From assembly GCF_003790525.1 (NCBI RefSeq), contig NZ_CP033634.1: DNA of 64,000 bases; one strand, written 5' to 3'. Position 1 is the stretch's first letter. Each line of letters starts with the position of its first letter. Source of the stretch: Escherichia coli. Lineage in GTDB: Bacteria; Pseudomonadota; Gammaproteobacteria; Enterobacterales; Enterobacteriaceae. The notes under the pieces are model-generated. The model had not been told where the DNA came from. It saw only the letters and a list, made by a program, of their open reading frames with translations, and made no database searches. The position numbers and the translations under genes are program-made. Shown here one piece after another: positions 10,410 through 49,171 of the stretch.

Positions 10410-10475
10410 GATAACAAGATAACAAGATAACAAGATAACAAGGTGTTATCTTGTTATCTCAAGGTGTTATCTTTG
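10410..10475. repeat. Downstream centromere-like iteron array (parC2-like): four direct GATAACAA copies plus inverted TTGTTATC copies
   Basis: gataacaagataacaagataacaagataacaaggtgttatcttgttatctcaaggtgttatc directly downstream of the parAB operon. Confidence 0.7.
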
Positions 10476-10769
10476 TTTTACTTCTGCTATCAATCGTGAT
10501 ACCTCTGTTTTTGATAGTGTTTTAAGTGCTTCTACCGCCGCCCTGACAACATCAGAACGATTCACTCTGCCTTTACCTGAAACCATCTCAGCCGTTATAA
10601 GGGCATCAATGTCTTTTAGGTTTTCTTCAAAAAAAGAAATACTCACTGGTTTTGCTTTGCTTACAACCGATGATTTATCTGATGACTTTTTGGTATTATC
10701 AAGGCCAGCCGTGCCACCGTTAATAAATGCTGCCTCGTCACGAGGTGAAGTGTTTGCTCTATTTCTCAC
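10467..10769 (-). CDS. parB: Small centromere-binding protein (ParB/ParG-like, predicted ribbon-helix-helix C-terminus)
   Basis: 100-aa ORF whose ATG overlaps the parA stop (ATGA); C-terminal RVNRSDVVRAAVEALKTL resembles an RHH DNA-binding fold. Confidence 0.65.
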   Translation of the reverse strand: MRNRANTSPRDEAAFINGGTAGLDNTKKSSDKSSVVSKAKPVSISFFEENLKDIDALITAEMVSGKGRVNRSDVVRAAVEALKTLSKTEVSRLIAEVKQR

Positions 10770-11392
10770 AGAATAACCTCTTTCACTAACGCTTCGATTT
10801 CTTGCTGGGCTTTATCATTTTGCGTTTCAAAAATTGTCATTGATTCGGCCCAAGCATCTCGATGTGCTTTACGATCACATACCCGGGAGTTTGCCAGATG
10901 CATTTCAGGGTAATCCTTAAGTACTTCAGCTGCCTCATTGGCTTCATTAACAAACATATTTGTGGGCGTCATGTTTAAAACGAGATATCCCCGAACATCC
11001 TCATTAAAATCTTTTGCTGCTGTAAAAACGGAGCATGTATGAGGCACAACATCCAGGTCCATCTGAGATGGGCGCAAAGGAGAAATGAATACATCTGCGG
11101 CCATCAATCCACTACGCATTTCTGCGCTATCACGGCCAGCACAGTCTGCAATAACAAAATCATAGGATTTTTCGTGTTCCTTTAACATGGCTTTGATGTT
11201 ACCTGTCGCGCCTGTAACCGGAATATGAGGGAGATCTTCAGGGCGATTGTTGTACCAGGTTAATACTGATTTCTGGTCATCTGCGTCGACAATAATCACT
11301 CTATTGCCTAGTGACATCAGATACGCAGCTATAGATACCGCCAGTGTACTTTTACCTACCCCACCCTTTTGACTACCTAATACTATTATCAT
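10766..11392 (-). CDS. parA: ParA-family partition ATPase (small type Ib, no N-terminal HTH)
   Basis: Deviant Walker A KGGVGKST at residues 9-16; 208 aa. Confidence 0.9.
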   Translation of the reverse strand: MIIVLGSQKGGVGKSTLAVSIAAYLMSLGNRVIIVDADDQKSVLTWYNNRPEDLPHIPVTGATGNIKAMLKEHEKSYDFVIADCAGRDSAEMRSGLMAADVFISPLRPSQMDLDVVPHTCSVFTAAKDFNEDVRGYLVLNMTPTNMFVNEANEAAEVLKDYPEMHLANSRVCDRKAHRDAWAESMTIFETQNDKAQQEIEALVKEVIL

Positions 11393-11403
11393 TATAGCCT
11401 CAT

Positions 11404-11430
11404 ATTAAGTTGTTAAGTTAACAACTTAAT
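11404..11430. promoter_or_regulatory. Palindromic operator-like site in the parA promoter region
   Basis: ATTAAGTTGTTAA/GTTAACAACTTAAT near-perfect palindrome 12 bp upstream of parA start; a related copy lies at about 11470-11495. Confidence 0.5.
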
Positions 11431-11519
11431 ATTGCCATCTGAACGCGAATCATGCAATTATTTTTGTTATATTAACAACTTAACAAGTTATTAAGTATTT
11501 GATTTATAGATTAATTAAT

Positions 11520-11574
11520 ATAACAAGATAACAAGATAACAAGATAACAAGATAACAAGATAACAAGATAACAA
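11520..11574. repeat. Upstream centromere-like iteron array (parC1-like): six to seven tandem GATAACAA copies
   Basis: taacaagataacaagataacaagataacaagataacaagataacaa. Confidence 0.7.
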
Positions 11575-11595: not shown

Positions 11596-12774
11596 TCATA
11601 ACTGGGCTACTGGCAAATCTGTCCATCTGGTGGTATACGCAGGAGAAAGCATTTCCCGTTTCATTTGCCATTCAGGGGCGGTTCCTCGCCCCGCAAACCA
11701 CACTTTCCCTTTTCCAGACTGGTTCAGTTCATCGAGTGTTTTCATTAACTTTTCGCTGTTTTTACGGGGCTGGATCTCATCAAATAATCCCGGCTGCGCT
11801 ATACCCGATGGTGTGAAATCAGCCAGCATGACTCCTGCCTTCATATAGCGGTACCCTTCACGCCAGACATGGTTTAAGGCTCTGCATGCGGCGGCAATAA
11901 TGTCCCGGCTGTCCTGTGTGGGCAATGGAAGCTTTTCCACAGCGGCATTGCTGTAACAGGGTTCTTTTACTGCAAAGGGGGATGTCCGTACAAATGTCGT
12001 CACCTGCCGGCAATACTGACGTTCCCCACGTAGTTTCTCTGCGGCCCGCTCTGCATACTGAACAACAGCCTGGTGCATGGCATCTTTGTCTGTGATTCGT
12101 TCACCAAAACTGCGACTACAGACAATCTGCTGTTTTGCCGGTGGTGCTTCTTCCAGGGATATGCAGGACTCGCCGTTGAGTTCGCGTACCGTACGCTCAA
12201 GAATGACGCTGAAGTTTTTCCGGATGAATGCCGTGTTAGCCTGCGCCAGCTGCAGTGCTGTGTTAATACCCAGCGCATTCAGCTTTTCCGTCAGTCTGCG
12301 TCCTACTCCCCAGACCTCACCAACTGGCTGCAGCCCCAGTAGCTTCAAGGTCCGATTACGGTTTTCTGCCGTCAGCGCGACCACTCCGGAAAACTGTGGC
12401 CATTGCTTTGTTGCCCACTGTGCACTTTTAGCCAGCGTTTTTGTAGGCGCAATGCCCACCCCCATGGTGAGTCCTGTCCAGCTCTTTACCTGTTCCCTGA
12501 GCTGATGACCAAAAACCTCCGGAGAGATGCAATGATTTATCCCCCGCAAATCAATGAACATTTCATCAATTGAGTAGGGCTCAACTGCGGGAGAAAGCGA
12601 CTCCAGAACAGCCATAACCCGTTGGCTCATGCTGTGGTACAGCGCATAATTGCTGGAAAATACATGTATTTTCTTCTCCAGGCGCATTTGTCTCACCTGA
12701 AACCAGGGCTGCCCCATTCTGATGCCAAGGGCTTTTGCCTCCGGGCTGCGCGCGATCACACAGCCATCGTTATT
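11596..12774 (-). pseudogene. impB: impB/umuC-like error-prone DNA polymerase (Y-family), 3' portion lacking the first 33 codons
   Basis: Translation from NNDGCVIARSPEAKALGIRMGQPWF... aligns with UmuC/MucB residues about 32 onward; upstream in-frame sequence is unrelated and stops. Confidence 0.85.
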
Positions 12775-13182
12775 CACCGTTACACGTTTTACACCCTAAA
12801 ATGTTATGAAAAACCTTTCTGAACAAAGCCTGTAGCCTGATTTGTGTAATTCTCATCGATATGAAGCAATAAGTTGAGAATTTTTTAATATGGGGCTCAT
12901 TAATTCTCAACAATTAAGTGTGGCATAACATTAATGTCTAAAACTTCTCAGTCTCGCATGCCAGATTGGTTCGTAGTCGTCGAGTGGTGATTGTGACAAT
13001 AAAGATCGAAACTTATGCTTTATCAACATGGCTATCTTAGATAAGTGTGCCAACAAAGTTTGAAACACACTTTTGCCCCATTATGAGTTACAACCCAAAG
13101 TTCAAACAGTGATGTTGAGGTAACTTTGATATACAAAAAGTAATGAACAGCAAAAGATAAAAGCTGAGCCAATTTGTTCACA

Positions 13183-44539: not shown

Positions 44540-47170
44540 ATGAGTAATAACCCACTTGAGGCCGTCACTCAGGCGGTTAACTCCCTCGTCACAGCACTGA
44601 AACTGCCTGACGAATCAGCAAAGGCCAATGAAGTGCTGGGCGAAATGAGCTTCCCGCAGTTCAGCCGTCTGCTGCCGTACCGTGATTACAACCAGGAATC
44701 CGGTCTGTTCATGAATGACACCACGATGGGCTTTATGCTGGAAGCCATTCCCATCAATGGGGCGAATAAGTCCATTGTGGAGGCACTCGATCACATGCTG
44801 CGCACCAAACTGCCGCGCGATATTCCGTTGTGTATCCATCTGATGTCCAGTCAGCTGGTTGGTGACAGGATTGAATACGGGCTGCGTGAGTTCTCCTGGT
44901 CAGGTGAACAGGCTGAACGGTTTAACGCCATTACCCGGGCCTATTATATGAAAGCGGCAGCGACACAGTTTCCGCTGCCGGAGGGGATGAATCTGGCCCT
45001 GACCCTGCGCCATTACCGGGTGTTTATCTCGTACTGTTCTCCTTCGAAGAAAAAAAGCCGGGCCGACATTCTGGAAATGGAAAACCTGGTGAAAATCATC
45101 CGGGCGTCGTTACAGGGGGCCAGTATCACCACACAGACGGTGGATGCACAGGCCTTTATCGATATTGTCGGGGAGATGATTAACCATAACCCGGACTCCC
45201 TGTACCCGAAAAGACGTCAGCTGGACCCGTATTCTGATCTGAATTATCAGTGTGTGGAGGACAGTTTTGATCTGAAAGTCCGGGCTGATTACCTGACGCT
45301 GGGCCTGCGTGAGAACGGCAGGAACAGCACGGCCCGCATCCTGAATTTCCATCTGGCCCGTAACCCGGAAATCGCCTTCCTGTGGAACATGGCCGACAAC
45401 TACAGCAACCTGCTGAACCCGGAACTGTCCATCTCCTGTCCGTTCATCCTGACGCTGACTCTGGTGGTGGAAGACCAGGTGAAAACCCACAGCGAAGCCA
45501 ACCTGAAGTACATGGACCTGGAGAAAAAGTCGAAGACCTCCTATGCCAAATGGTTTCCGTCCGTGGAGAAAGAGGCGAAGGAGTGGGGGGAACTGCGTCA
45601 GCGGCTGGGCTCCGGTCAGTCCTCCGTGGTGTCCTACTTCCTCAACATCACAGCATTCTGCAAGGACAATAATGAAACGGCGCTGAAAGTGGAGCAGGAC
45701 ATCCTGAACAGCTTTCGTAAAAACGGTTTTGAGCTGATTTCACCGCGCTTTAACCACATGCGCAATTTCCTGACCTGCCTGCCCTTTATGGCCGGGAAAG
45801 GGCTGTTTAAACAGCTGAAAGAGGCCGGAGTGGTTCAGCGCGCAGAGAGCTTTAATGTGGCCAACCTGATGCCGTTAGTGGCGGATAACCCCCTGACACC
45901 GGCAGGTCTGCTGGCACCCACCTACCGTAACCAGCTGGCGTTTATCGATATTTTCTTCCGGGGGATGAATAACACCAATTACAACATGGCGGTCTGTGGC
46001 ACCTCCGGGGCCGGTAAAACCGGGCTGATACAGCCACTTATCCGCAGCGTGCTGGACTCCGGGGGCTTTGCCGTGGTGTTCGACATGGGGGATGGCTACA
46101 AGTCCCTGTGTGAGAACATGGGGGGCGTATATCTGGACGGTGAAACCCTGCGCTTTAACCCGTTTGCGAACATCACCGATATTGACCAGTCAGCGGAGCG
46201 TGTCCGCGACCAGCTGTCGGTGATGGCCAGCCCCAACGGTAACCTGGATGAAGTGCATGAAGGTCTGCTGCTGCAGGCGGTCAGGGCATCATGGCTGGCC
46301 AAAGAGAACAGGGCTCGTATTGATGACGTGGTGGATTTCCTGAAAAACGCCAGTGACAGCGAGCAGTATGCCGGGTCACCGACTATCCGCAGCCGTCTGG
46401 ACGAAATGATTGTGCTGCTTGACCAGTACACTGCCAACGGCACTTACGGCCAGTATTTTAACTCTGATGAGCCGTCCCTGCGGGATGACGCAAAAATGGT
46501 GGTGCTGGAGCTGGGCGGACTGGAAGACCGTCCGTCACTGCTGGTTGCGGTGATGTTCTCCCTGATTATCTACATCGAGAACAGGATGTACCGCACGCCG
46601 CGTAACCTCAAGAAACTGAACGTTATTGATGAAGGCTGGCGTCTGCTGGACTTCAAAAATCACAAGGTCGGTGAATTTATTGAGAAAGGCTACCGTACGG
46701 CCCGCCGTCATACCGGTGCCTATATCACCATCACACAGAACATCGTCGACTTTGACTCTGACAAGGCCTCCAGTGCTGCCCGCGCGGCATGGGGTAACTC
46801 CTCCTACAAAATTATCCTCAGACAGAGTGCGAAGGAGTTCGCGAAATACAACCAGCTGTATCCGGACCAGTTCCAGCCACTGCAGCGCGACATGATTGGT
46901 AAGTTTGGTGCGGCCAAAGACCAGTGGTTCAGTTCCTTCCTGCTGCAGGTGGAAAACCATTCCTCCTGGCACCGCCTGTTTGTGGACCCGTTAAGCCGCG
47001 CCATGTACAGCTCTGACGGCCCGGATTTTGAGTTTGTGCAGCAGAAACGTAAAGAGGGGCTGAGTATTCATGAGGCGGTGTGGCAGCTGGCGTGGAAGAA
47101 GTCAGGGCCGGAGATGGCTTCGCTGGAAGCCTGGCTGGAAGAACATGAGAAATACAGGAGTGTTGCATGA
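44540..47170 (+). CDS. traC: TraC, VirB4-family ATPase
   Basis: 876 aa; Walker A GTSGAGKT. Confidence 0.95.
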   Translation: MSNNPLEAVTQAVNSLVTALKLPDESAKANEVLGEMSFPQFSRLLPYRDYNQESGLFMNDTTMGFMLEAIPINGANKSIVEALDHMLRTKLPRDIPLCIHLMSSQLVGDRIEYGLREFSWSGEQAERFNAITRAYYMKAAATQFPLPEGMNLALTLRHYRVFISYCSPSKKKSRADILEMENLVKIIRASLQGASITTQTVDAQAFIDIVGEMINHNPDSLYPKRRQLDPYSDLNYQCVEDSFDLKVRADYLTLGLRENGRNSTARILNFHLARNPEIAFLWNMADNYSNLLNPELSISCPFILTLTLVVEDQVKTHSEANLKYMDLEKKSKTSYAKWFPSVEKEAKEWGELRQRLGSGQSSVVSYFLNITAFCKDNNETALKVEQDILNSFRKNGFELISPRFNHMRNFLTCLPFMAGKGLFKQLKEAGVVQRAESFNVANLMPLVADNPLTPAGLLAPTYRNQLAFIDIFFRGMNNTNYNMAVCGTSGAGKTGLIQPLIRSVLDSGGFAVVFDMGDGYKSLCENMGGVYLDGETLRFNPFANITDIDQSAERVRDQLSVMASPNGNLDEVHEGLLLQAVRASWLAKENRARIDDVVDFLKNASDSEQYAGSPTIRSRLDEMIVLLDQYTANGTYGQYFNSDEPSLRDDAKMVVLELGGLEDRPSLLVAVMFSLIIYIENRMYRTPRNLKKLNVIDEGWRLLDFKNHKVGEFIEKGYRTARRHTGAYITITQNIVDFDSDKASSAARAAWGNSSYKIILRQSAKEFAKYNQLYPDQFQPLQRDMIGKFGAAKDQWFSSFLLQVENHSSWHRLFVDPLSRAMYSSDGPDFEFVQQKRKEGLSIHEAVWQLAWKKSGPEMASLEAWLEEHEKYRSVA

Positions 47171-47553
47171 CCATAACGCAAAAAACGACGGATGTTACAG
47201 CCCCCCGACGCAGCCACTGGTGGTGGACGGTGCCGGGATACCTGGCAATGGTGTTACTGAACGCAGCCATCAGTTACGGCATTGTCAGACTGAACGCACC
47301 GGTGACTGCCGCCTTCAACATGAAACAGACCGTGGATGCGTTTTTTGACAGCGCCAGTCAGAAACAACTGTCAGAAGCACAGTCAAAAGCCCTTTCAGCG
47401 CGTTTTAACACGGCACTGGAAGCCAGCCTGCAGGCGTGGCAGCAGAAACACCACGCGGTCATTCTGGTGTCGCCTGCTGTGGTACAGGGGGCACCGGATA
47501 TCACCCGGGAAATCCAGCAGGATATTGCCCGGCGAATGAGGGCGGAGCCATGA
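47167..47553 (+). CDS. trbI: TrbI
   Basis: 128 aa, gene order. Confidence 0.85.
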   Translation: MTITQKTTDVTAPRRSHWWWTVPGYLAMVLLNAAISYGIVRLNAPVTAAFNMKQTVDAFFDSASQKQLSEAQSKALSARFNTALEASLQAWQQKHHAVILVSPAVVQGAPDITREIQQDIARRMRAEP

Positions 47554-48182
47554 GATGCCGGGGGCTGATTGCCCTGCTGATATGGGGGCAGAGTGTGGCC
47601 GCCGCCGATCTTGGTACCTGGGGCGATCTGTGGCCGGTAAATGAGCCGGACATGCTGACGGTGATCATGCAGCGCCTGACGGCACTGGAGCAGTCCGGTG
47701 AGATGGGCCGGAAAATGGATGCCTTTAAGGAGCGGGTGATCCGCAACAGTCTGCGGCCCCCTGCCGTGCCCGGTATCGGACGCACGGAGAAATACGGCAG
47801 CCGGTTGTTTGACCCGTCCGTCAGACTGGCTGCGGATATCCGGGATAACGAAGGGCGGGTGTTTGCCCGTCAGGGTGAAGTGATGAATCCATTGCAGTAT
47901 GTTCCTTTTAACCAGACGCTGTATTTCATCAATGGCGATGATCCGGCGCAGGTGGCCTGGATGAAACGCCAGACGCCGCCCACACTGGAGAGCAAAATTA
48001 TCCTCGTGCAGGGCAGTATCCCGGAGACGCAGAAGTCTCTGGACAACCGTGTTTACTTTGACCAGAACGGTGTGCTCTGCCAGCGCCTCGGCATTGATCA
48101 GGTCCCGGCACGGGTGAGCGCCGTTCCCGGCGATCGCTTCCTGAAGGTGGAATTTATTCCGGCAGAGGAGGGCAGAAAATGA
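47550..48182 (+). CDS. traW: TraW
   Basis: 210 aa with signal peptide, starts at MRCRGLIALL; the longer ORF-track entry begins upstream. Confidence 0.85.
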   Translation: MRCRGLIALLIWGQSVAAADLGTWGDLWPVNEPDMLTVIMQRLTALEQSGEMGRKMDAFKERVIRNSLRPPAVPGIGRTEKYGSRLFDPSVRLAADIRDNEGRVFARQGEVMNPLQYVPFNQTLYFINGDDPAQVAWMKRQTPPTLESKIILVQGSIPETQKSLDNRVYFDQNGVLCQRLGIDQVPARVSAVPGDRFLKVEFIPAEEGRK

Positions 48183-49171
48183 AGCGAAGCCTGTGGCTGC
48201 TGATGTTATTCCTTCTCGCCGGTCATGTCCCTGCAGCGTCTGCGGATTCTGCCTGTGAGGGGCGTTTTGTAAACCCGATCACGGATATCTGCTGGAGCTG
48301 TATTTTCCCGCTCTCGCTGGGCAGTATCAAAGTCAGTCAGGGTAAGGTCCCCGACACGGCGAACCCGTCGATGCCCATTCAGATTTGTCCGGCACCGCCG
48401 CCGCTGTTCAGGCGTATCGGGCTGGCCATTGGTTACTGGGAGCCGATGGCGCTGACGGACGTCACCCGATCACCGGGATGCATGGTTAACCTGGGCTTCA
48501 GCCTGCCGGCTTTTGGTAAAACGGCACAGGGAACGGCGAAAAAGGATGAGAAGCAGGTGAACGGGGCGTTCTATCACGTTCACTGGTACAAATACCCGCT
48601 GACGTACTGGCTTAACATCATCACATCGCTGGGCTGTCTGGAAGGTGGTGACCTGGATATCGCTTATCTTTCTGAAATCGACCCCACCTGGACGGACAGC
48701 AGCCTGACCACCATTCTCAATCCGGAAGCTGTCATCTTTGCCAATCCGATAGCACAGGGGGCCTGTGCAGCAGATGCCATTGCCAGCGCCTTTAATATGC
48801 CTCTCGATGTTCTGTTCTGGTGTGCCGGTTCGCAGGGCAGTATGTACCCGTTCAATGGCTGGGTGAGTAATGAGTCCAGTCCGTTGCAGTCCTCCCTGCT
48901 GGTCAGTGAACGCATGGCGTTCAAGCTGCACCGTCAGGGCATGATTATGGAAACCATCGGGAAAAATAACGCCGTCTGTAATGAATATCCGTCCCCAATC
49001 CTGCCCAAAGAACGCTGGCGTTACCAGATGGTGAATATGTACCCGGACAGCGGACAGTGCCACCCGTTCGGGCGCAGTGTGACCCGCTGGGAGACGGGAA
49101 AAAATCCGCCCAACACAAAGAAAAACTTCGGCTACCTGATGTGGCGTAAACGTAACTGTGTGTTCCTGTAA
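48179..49171 (+). CDS. traU: TraU
   Basis: 330 aa, signal peptide, gene order. Confidence 0.9.
   Translation: MKRSLWLLMLFLLAGHVPAASADSACEGRFVNPITDICWSCIFPLSLGSIKVSQGKVPDTANPSMPIQICPAPPPLFRRIGLAIGYWEPMALTDVTRSPGCMVNLGFSLPAFGKTAQGTAKKDEKQVNGAFYHVHWYKYPLTYWLNIITSLGCLEGGDLDIAYLSEIDPTWTDSSLTTILNPEAVIFANPIAQGACAADAIASAFNMPLDVLFWCAGSQGSMYPFNGWVSNESSPLQSSLLVSERMAFKLHRQGMIMETIGKNNAVCNEYPSPILPKERWRYQMVNMYPDSGQCHPFGRSVTRWETGKNPPNTKKNFGYLMWRKRNCVFL

Follow-up and report, generated by a model that had tools for sequence, protein, structure and literature searches.

The locus lies on the minus strand of a 64-kb stretch of Escherichia coli DNA (hereafter the window, to which all coordinates refer) and comprises two genes, two arrays of short repeats and a promoter region. 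The first gene, parA (11392..10766, minus strand), encodes a 208-aa ParF-like deviant Walker-A ATPase of type Ib; its translation begins MIIVLGSQKGGVGKST and it is preceded by a GAGG Shine-Dalgarno at 11398-11401. The second, parB (10769..10467, minus strand), encodes a 100-aa centromere-binding protein with a conserved N-terminal tail, a variable linker and a C-terminal domain at residues ~41-100. The genes form an operon, the GTG start codon of parB and the stop codon of parA sharing a GTGA overlap. A parS array stands on either side of the gene pair, one upstream of parA (11520..11574) and one around the 3' end of parB (10410..10479), and a perfect palindrome (11402..11432) separates parA from its promoter candidate.

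The upstream array (minus strand) is made up of seven head-to-tail octamers, TTGTTATC in operon orientation. Tandem Repeats Finder (TRF) reports 6.9 copies of an 8-bp unit with 100% match at 11520-11574, and exact matching resolves these into six exact GATAACAA units at 11527-11574, preceded by the one-mismatch unit TATAACAA; the six to seven repeats counted in the preliminary description of this DNA are therefore real. The downstream array is of mixed orientation and is not assigned to a strand. It opens with four exact GATAACAA units (10410-10441) followed by a single G, continues with the inverted pair GTGTTATC and TTGTTATC (10443-10458), is interrupted by the 5-nt break TCAAG, and closes with one further inverted GTGTTATC (10464-10471) and a degenerate TTTGTTTT (10472-10479). 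The same description had given four direct plus inverted copies overlapping the 3' end of the small gene, and both statements hold: the array extends over 10410-10479, and the parB stop codon (10467-10469) falls within the inverted box at 10464-10471. There are 11 copies of the exact unit GATAACAA in the 64-kb window, every one of them within the two arrays; shuffled windows contain 1.86 on average and six at most, and none of 100 shuffles reaches 11. We also considered a terminator-like hairpin at 10423-10461 and rejected it, as it is merely the inverted-repeat junction of the downstream array.

The cassette is already known: it is a published, experimentally validated partition system. The parA-parB coding DNA of the window is identical to that of pESBL-EA11 (NC_018659.1), and both proteins are 100% identical at the amino-acid level. 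ParA is WP_000587689.1 and ParB is WP_001245884.1, and the two are common to pESBL-EA11, pGZM7d and pMS7163B. The pESBL system was characterised by Daniel et al. (2020, Genes 11:1207; PMC7602700) on an IncI1 plasmid of E. coli O104:H4, where a region of about 1 kb was depleted in Tn-seq. These authors corrected the ParA start codon to take in the Walker A motif, renamed the 100-aa hypothetical protein Hp7 as ParB, and found octamer repeats with the consensus GATAACAA on both sides of the par genes; they classed the locus as type Ib and likened its two-array layout to those of pB171 and pSM19035 (PMC7602700). The pESBL cassette, ~1.3 kb placed alone on a heterologous replicon, stabilised a par-less mini-F, and GFP-ParB formed foci only when pESBL was present (PMC7602700). 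Electrophoretic mobility shift assays (EMSA) of the small protein on the repeat arrays, which the preliminary description had called for, had already been carried out with a positive outcome: with the probe carrying seven direct repeats ParB formed seven complexes in a stepwise ladder, with the 4+4 inverted one it formed eight, and the shift was specific, with comparable affinity for the direct and the inverted arrays (PMC7602700). Deletion of par did not visibly destabilise pESBL itself (PMC7602700), because conjugation and toxin-antitoxin systems compensate. In a transposon mutagenesis screen (TraDIS) of pMS7163B, parAB was scored as necessary for replication or maintenance (PMC10286972). 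For proteins identical to those of the window, experiments have in this way demonstrated that ParB binds octamer arrays and forms foci that depend on the plasmid, that the cassette stabilises mini-F, and that parAB is needed for plasmid maintenance.

The likeness to pESBL covers the GATAACAA unit, the two-array layout, the promoter palindrome and the place adjoining impB. The sequence features that mark a pESBL-type locus are found in the window, namely a 208-aa ParA, a 100-aa ParB/Hp7 and GATAACAA arrays both upstream (direct) and downstream (direct and inverted), and nothing that we found contradicts this assignment. In an alignment, the upstream array of the window corresponds to the seven-repeat array upstream of the pESBL-EA11 genes, which fits the published description of the '7-DR' EMSA probe; the downstream arrays of the two plasmids are homologous, and the central 4+4 part of the pESBL one fits the description of the '8-BS' probe. 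The two loci differ in three respects. The downstream array has four direct and three inverted units in the window, whereas pESBL has ten direct units (three of them GATGACAA variants) and five inverted ones (4+1); the host replicon is F-like in the window and of the I-complex in pESBL; and the window has a resolvase remnant 150 bp beyond the array, while in pESBL a Tn3-family inverted repeat abuts it.

For ParA the classification is straightforward. The Walker A motif KGGVGKST starts at residue 9, which leaves no room for an N-terminal DNA-binding or helix-turn-helix (HTH) domain and makes the protein a type Ib ATPase: a small (~200 aa) deviant Walker-A ParA that lacks an N-terminal HTH. It matches the NCBIfam model ParA_partition over its full length at 1e-45, with a score of 155.8 bits that is below the curated cut-off of 180, and Pfam models MipZ, AAA_31 and CbiA also match. 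Among proteins of solved structure it is best matched by ParF of TP228 (4dzz), aligned end to end over residues 6-207 with an E-value of 2.3e-14. The small Walker-type ParA recognised from the sequence at the outset is therefore correctly identified by its 208-aa length, its KGGVGKST motif and its ParA_partition match, and the type Ib partition cassette proposed with it is upheld by the ParF homology, the ParA architecture and the published type Ib classification.

The fold of ParB is less readily read from its sequence. Daniel et al. described the protein as having no predicted DNA-binding motif (PMC7602700), and our Pfam and NCBIfam scans of the window ParB likewise returned no ribbon-helix-helix (RHH) domain and no significant match, only spurious hits to LisH and aCcr1. 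We collected 164 ParB homologues at E ≤ 1e-3, reaching down to about 55% identity, and built the family alignment from 31 of them. Across this alignment the N-terminal tail reads MRNRANTxPRDExAFINGGTAG and is followed by the variable linker; the N-terminal 22 residues are strongly conserved, and R2, N3, R4, E12, F15, I16, G18 and G19 are invariant in 31/31 sequences. The conserved C-terminal segment has the form KAKPVSISF-x-NL-x2-ID-x2-I-x2-EM ... RVNRSDVVRAAV. Single members of the family come close to the RHH model RHH_1, which is found in 12 of the 31 homologues with a best E-value of 0.012, a sub-threshold score. A profile search of the PDB with an HMM made from the 31 homologues gave chance matches alone (E > 0.3).

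Structure prediction is more informative. The AlphaFold2 model of the ParB monomer, computed with the 31-homologue alignment, has a disordered tail and pLDDT values of 86-96 for residues 41-100, which form an extended PVSISF segment followed by helices at 48-64, 71-82 and 87-98. RHH folds are known only as dimers, and we therefore modelled a fused dimer in which two ParB C-terminal domains are joined by a Gly-Ser linker, with an alignment to match. This model has a pTM of 0.77 and carries beta-strands at both VSI segments; as these are the sole strands of at least three residues in the dimer, we infer that they pair with each other. A Foldseek search of the PDB with the monomer model placed three RHH ParD antitoxins at the top, with all E-values above 1, a result too weak to be read alone. 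Taken as a whole, the in silico evidence gives good support to a predicted ParB structure consisting of an RHH dimer with an additional C-terminal helix. By structure prediction alone, ParB would thus be the small RHH (not HTH/CTPase) centromere-binding protein expected of a type Ib system, and the RHH-like nature first attributed to the 100-aa partner is supported by the predicted structure, the sequence models remaining sub-threshold. Together with the 8-bp arrays seen across the family, the RHH assignment offers a structural hypothesis for a ParB that has been described as lacking a recognisable DNA-binding motif.

Among close relatives, the arrays vary in unit number alone. The window has seven upstream units and, downstream, four direct and three inverted ones; the corresponding numbers are six, five and three in pGZM7d, eight, four and three in the IncK2 plasmid p5312.29, six, eleven and three in KPWX136 pC, and seven, ten and five in pESBL-EA11. 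If a 5-bp indel is discounted, the lengths of the full-length megablast matches, taken from their coordinates, differ by whole numbers of 8-bp units. The close relatives range from six to eight upstream units and from four to eleven direct downstream units, and array size differs even between plasmids that are 99.9% identical.

The same organisation is recognisable at a greater distance. We examined four diverged loci (L006-L009) whose ParB proteins are 58%, 60%, 62% and 71% identical to that of the window, and in all four an array with an 8-bp period begins at most a few bases from the stop codon of parB. One of them, L009, has a switch from direct to inverted units as in the window. Upstream of parA the diverged loci have degenerate, in-phase boxes only. 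The octamer units that we compared are TTGTTATC, ATAACAAC (other strand GTTGTTAT), GATAGTAA (other strand TTACTATC), TATCTTAG (other register TTAGTATC) and TTAATAAG (other strand TTATTAAC); placed in one register, they have the core TTnnTAnC in common.

The region between the upstream array and parA contains further octamer-like elements. The best sigma-70-like promoter candidate (11457..11490, minus strand) has a -35 element TTGTTA at 11486-11481 and a -10 element AATAAT at 11462-11457 and scores 9/12 in a consensus scan. The region holds five promoter-like sites where 4.7 are expected, which is not above chance, and the promoter assignment is for this reason only a guess. The degenerate octamer boxes TTGTTAAG, TTGTTAAT and the inverted TATAACAA overlap the candidate, TRF reports 2.4 copies of TTAACAAC at 11472-11490, and further degenerate octamer units lie within 11464-11490. 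Between the candidate and the GAGG Shine-Dalgarno, directly upstream of the latter, stands the palindrome ATATTAAGTTGTTAA-C-TTAACAACTTAATAT (11402..11432, minus strand), a putative ParB operator with 15-nt arms that are 100% complementary around a 1-nt centre; the separate palindrome at the promoter noted earlier is accounted for by this 15+1+15 element. It consists of two facing TTGTTAA(C/G) half-sites, each one or two mismatches from the parS unit TTGTTATC, and it is kept in pESBL (with one mismatch), p5312 and KPWX136 pC. As RNA, the palindrome has a predicted folding energy of -19.2 kcal/mol (z -5.35). We discarded a reading as an RNA hairpin, since such a fold is common to all palindromes and the diverged homologues do not keep the hairpin, having octamer-like boxes at this position instead. 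Within the promoter-proximal 130 nt, the locus's own octamer is enriched at three of five loci (P 0.03, 0.013 and 0.0015); a cross-comparison of octamers between loci does not discriminate, the units being AT-rich and mutually related, and the enrichment is suggestive only. The near-consensus half-sites of the palindrome and the degenerate promoter boxes suggest that ParB may also act as an autorepressor.

Of the other known systems, TP228 parFGH is related in its ATPase. The comparison with it, which the preliminary description had put forward as a check, holds for one protein and fails for the other: the window ParA is homologous to ParF over its whole length (E 2.3e-14), whereas sequence similarity between ParB and ParG is undetectable, which places the locus outside the ParFGH family sensu stricto, where a ParG homologue is required. 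The predicted ParB moreover has an extra C-terminal helix, and the repeat sequence differs. Both centromeres have an 8-bp periodicity, parH of TP228 consisting of 4-bp boxes separated by 4-bp spacers; the TP228 centromere sites lie upstream only, while the window has arrays on both sides of the operon. The likeness to pB171 par2 (parC1-parA-parB-parC2) is one of architecture, in that two repeat regions bracket a type Ib parAB pair. The repeats of pB171 are 6-bp units and not contiguous octamers. Its two-site organisation is confirmed by the literature (PMC4270457), and the resemblance in organisation to which the preliminary description had pointed rests on this layout and on the same comparison drawn by Daniel et al. 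(PMC7602700). The delta-omega system of pSM19035 resembles the window in having contiguous short units of mixed orientation that are cooperatively bound by a small protein of the RHH type, which ParB is predicted to be, with approximately one binding unit per repeat. There, the RHH protein omega binds contiguous heptads, direct and inverted, so that the unit is 7 bp as against 8 bp in the window. The system is a Gram-positive one, and the window ParA is only weakly similar to delta (2oze, E 7e-4). In pSM19035, too, the par genes have arrays on either side, a comparison cited in PMC7602700.

We conclude with high confidence that the pESBL-type (I-complex) type Ib ParABS system is present in the window as a functional copy, its carrier being an F-like plasmid and a close relative of pGZM7d. 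The in silico evidence shown here for the window consists of the sequence identity, the ParF homology and the predicted RHH fold. In the mechanism that we propose, ParB dimers would bind each GATAACAA octamer of both arrays cooperatively, with about one binding unit per octamer, and so build a partition complex. The C-terminal RHH domain would place its beta-ribbon in the major groove. Through its N-terminal tail, which is conserved and modelled as disordered, ParB would contact nucleoid-bound ParA and stimulate ATP hydrolysis by the latter, as the tail of ParG does with its ATPase, and the resulting ParA gradient would space plasmid copies over the nucleoid, leaving one for each daughter cell. 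ParB bound to the upstream array and to the promoter and palindrome boxes probably also autoregulates parAB. Three elements of this scheme are drawn by analogy with ParFG of TP228 and par2 of pB171: the tail as stimulator of the ATPase, the autoregulation of parAB, and the function of the palindrome.

The two arrays need not contribute equally to this scheme. One of them, probably the downstream one, might be the working centromere, the upstream array and the palindrome serving mainly as the operator through which ParB represses parAB. We take this division of labour seriously, although we lean against it. The distance from the end of the upstream array to the best -35 candidate is 34 bp, that promoter is overlapped by degenerate octamers, and the locus's own octamer is enriched near the promoter at three of five loci; in L006-L009 the clean array is downstream of parB only and the upstream boxes are degenerate. 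Daniel et al. leave the role of the upstream array open (partition and/or expression), and parC1 of pB171 is regulatory (PMC7602700). However, in EMSA the affinity of ParB for direct arrays is comparable to that for inverted ones (PMC7602700), all close relatives keep the upstream array perfectly at six to eight units, a number that seems in excess of what an operator requires, and the octamer cross-comparison, with its AT-rich and related units, is not clean. A reading of the arrays as replication iterons, or as sites for a host or Rep protein with the two ORFs as incidental neighbours, has in its favour that iterons, too, are short AT-rich repeats in tandem. It is effectively refuted and its likelihood is negligible: by itself the cassette can stabilise a heterologous replicon, and the shift of the arrays by ParB is specific (PMC7602700), no rep gene is adjacent, the IncFII repA of the closest relative pGZM7d being far away, and diverged ParB homologues have their own variant arrays at the same position. 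The term 'iteron' applied to these repeats at first was accordingly a misnomer; they are parS, or centromere, sites.

The surroundings of the cassette raise a different question. I-complex plasmids normally have it adjoining impCAB; in the window it sits, intact, in a mosaic region of an F-like plasmid, of which pGZM7d, F-like itself and 99.9% identical to the window, is the closest relative. To the left is an ORF of 92 aa (10017-10295) that retains an HTH_7 domain and the last ~30 residues of a resolvase catalytic domain. Resolvase homology ends near 10260, and 10262-10409 is native par-locus backbone shared with the IncK2 plasmid p5312.29. Native backbone therefore reaches left to about 10262 and the remnant is ~150 bp from the array, which corrects the earlier statement that the array abuts a truncated resolvase gene: the alignment with p5312.29 shows ~150 bp of backbone between the two. 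To the right, impB (11596-12777) is truncated to 393 aa, compared with about 423 aa in relatives, and in pGZM7d inserted genes part impB from umuD and dinI.

Such a neighbourhood, rearranged and with a resolvase remnant (10017-~10260) on one side and a shortened impB, parted from umuD/dinI by inserted genes, on the other, would be compatible with a decaying passenger that no longer partitions its plasmid, the more so as the downstream array (4+3) is among the shortest seen. We regard this as very improbable. The two ORFs are undamaged and encode proteins identical to the characterised ones; nor is there damage to the promoter region, the palindrome or either array, and the same 4+3 downstream array is present in p5312.29 on a normal IncK2 backbone. 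Nor does the inspected 70 kb of pGZM7d have another annotated par operon of the Walker or actin type.

A bolder set of proposals, taken jointly, stands for us at even odds. In it, ParB would found a distinct RHH-plus-third-helix lineage whose invariant beta-strand KAKPVSIS reads TTnnTAnC in contiguous 8-bp units; the palindrome would be a dedicated ParB operator apart from the centromere arrays; and rapid slippage by 8 bp would tune the size of the partition complex or incompatibility.

A megablast search with the 1.35-kb cassette retrieved it from 2,235 of 72,556 PLSDB records, most of them from Klebsiella (1,289), Escherichia (543) and Salmonella (178). Backbones of the I-complex, IncK2/Z and F-like types all carry the module. 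In the first 50 kb of the R64 record, the impB-proximal ParA is only 24% identical and neither a ParB homologue nor octamer arrays were found; in that part, R64 appears to be without a pESBL-type cassette. The cassette is a very frequent component of resistance and virulence plasmids in enterobacteria, and its presence here adds little new biology. In RefSeq, the 100-aa ParB is labelled 'hypothetical protein', as a result of which these plasmids appear to carry an orphan ParA.

PMC10286972 holds the parAB genes of pMS7163B to be unrelated to the pESBL system, and equates the latter with the system of R64. In RefSeq, the ParA and ParB proteins of pMS7163B (4052–4977) are identical to those of the characterised pESBL locus on pESBL-EA11 (1995–2920). 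The ParA encoded close to impB in R64 (45383–48225) shares 24% identity with the pMS7163B/pESBL ParA and adjoins a ParM/ParR pair; the initial 50 kb of R64 contain no octamer arrays. Going by these sequences, the published accounts of the kinship of the pMS7163B, pESBL and R64 par systems are possibly inconsistent. pESBL was examined up to 54 kb; further along, the plasmid may also carry an R64-type locus. The experimentally characterised 100-aa ParB (WP_001245884.1) is still labelled 'hypothetical protein' in all five RefSeq records inspected (pESBL-EA11, p5312.29, KPWX136 pC, pGZM7d and pMS7163B).

The arrays of 8-bp ParB-binding octamers that flank the par genes vary even between close relatives. 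Across 25 kb the window matches pGZM7d at 99.9% identity, yet the upstream array (window 11520–11574) has seven units in the window and six in pGZM7d, while the downstream direct array (10410–10441) has four units in the window and five in pGZM7d. Unequal array sizes at this level of identity indicate very fast 8-bp slippage, or else uncertain assembly of such short repeats. A Tn3-family transposon carrying blaTEM-1 adjoins the downstream array in pESBL: its terminal inverted repeat (…GTTCCACTGAGCGTCAGACCCC) runs straight into the leading GATAACAA unit of that array (pESBL-EA11 1830–1875); as the end of the inverted repeat is contiguous with the array, the transposon is inserted within the centromere array or at its edge. 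A diverged homologous par locus on a metagenome contig, the ParB of which is 62% identical to that of the window, has two successive octamer arrays downstream of parB (2307–2500 of that locus): about 10 perfect copies of ATAACAAC are followed, 35 bp further on, by about eight perfect copies of GATAGTAA. These paired arrays could represent two adjacent centromere specificities, or an intermediate of a specificity switch.

Next to the par cassette of the window, beyond the upstream array, lies impB, a minus-strand Y-family polymerase ORF with a GTG start (11596–12777). At 393 aa, it is shortened at the N-terminus compared with about 423 aa in relatives. In pGZM7d, the closest relative, impB is separated from umuD/dinI by unrelated genes: those of a 362-aa hypothetical protein, a PIN-domain protein, AbiH and IS2. 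The impCAB operon adjoining the par cassette is therefore broken up.

Beyond the downstream array, a serine resolvase remnant (10017–10260, minus strand) retains HTH_7 and the final ~30 residues of the catalytic domain. Its boundary with the backbone lies near 10260, and the first ~11 codons of the 92-aa ORF listed here come from the par-locus backbone. Just past the remnant, within 7549–9929, sit a 465-aa PTS EIIC/EIIB-like permease ORF (minus strand), assigned from its translation alone, and a 249-aa GntR-family regulator (plus strand), with the annotation taken from pGZM7d. From its predicted gene content, the 7549–9929 stretch looks like a metabolic cargo island adjoining the partition locus.
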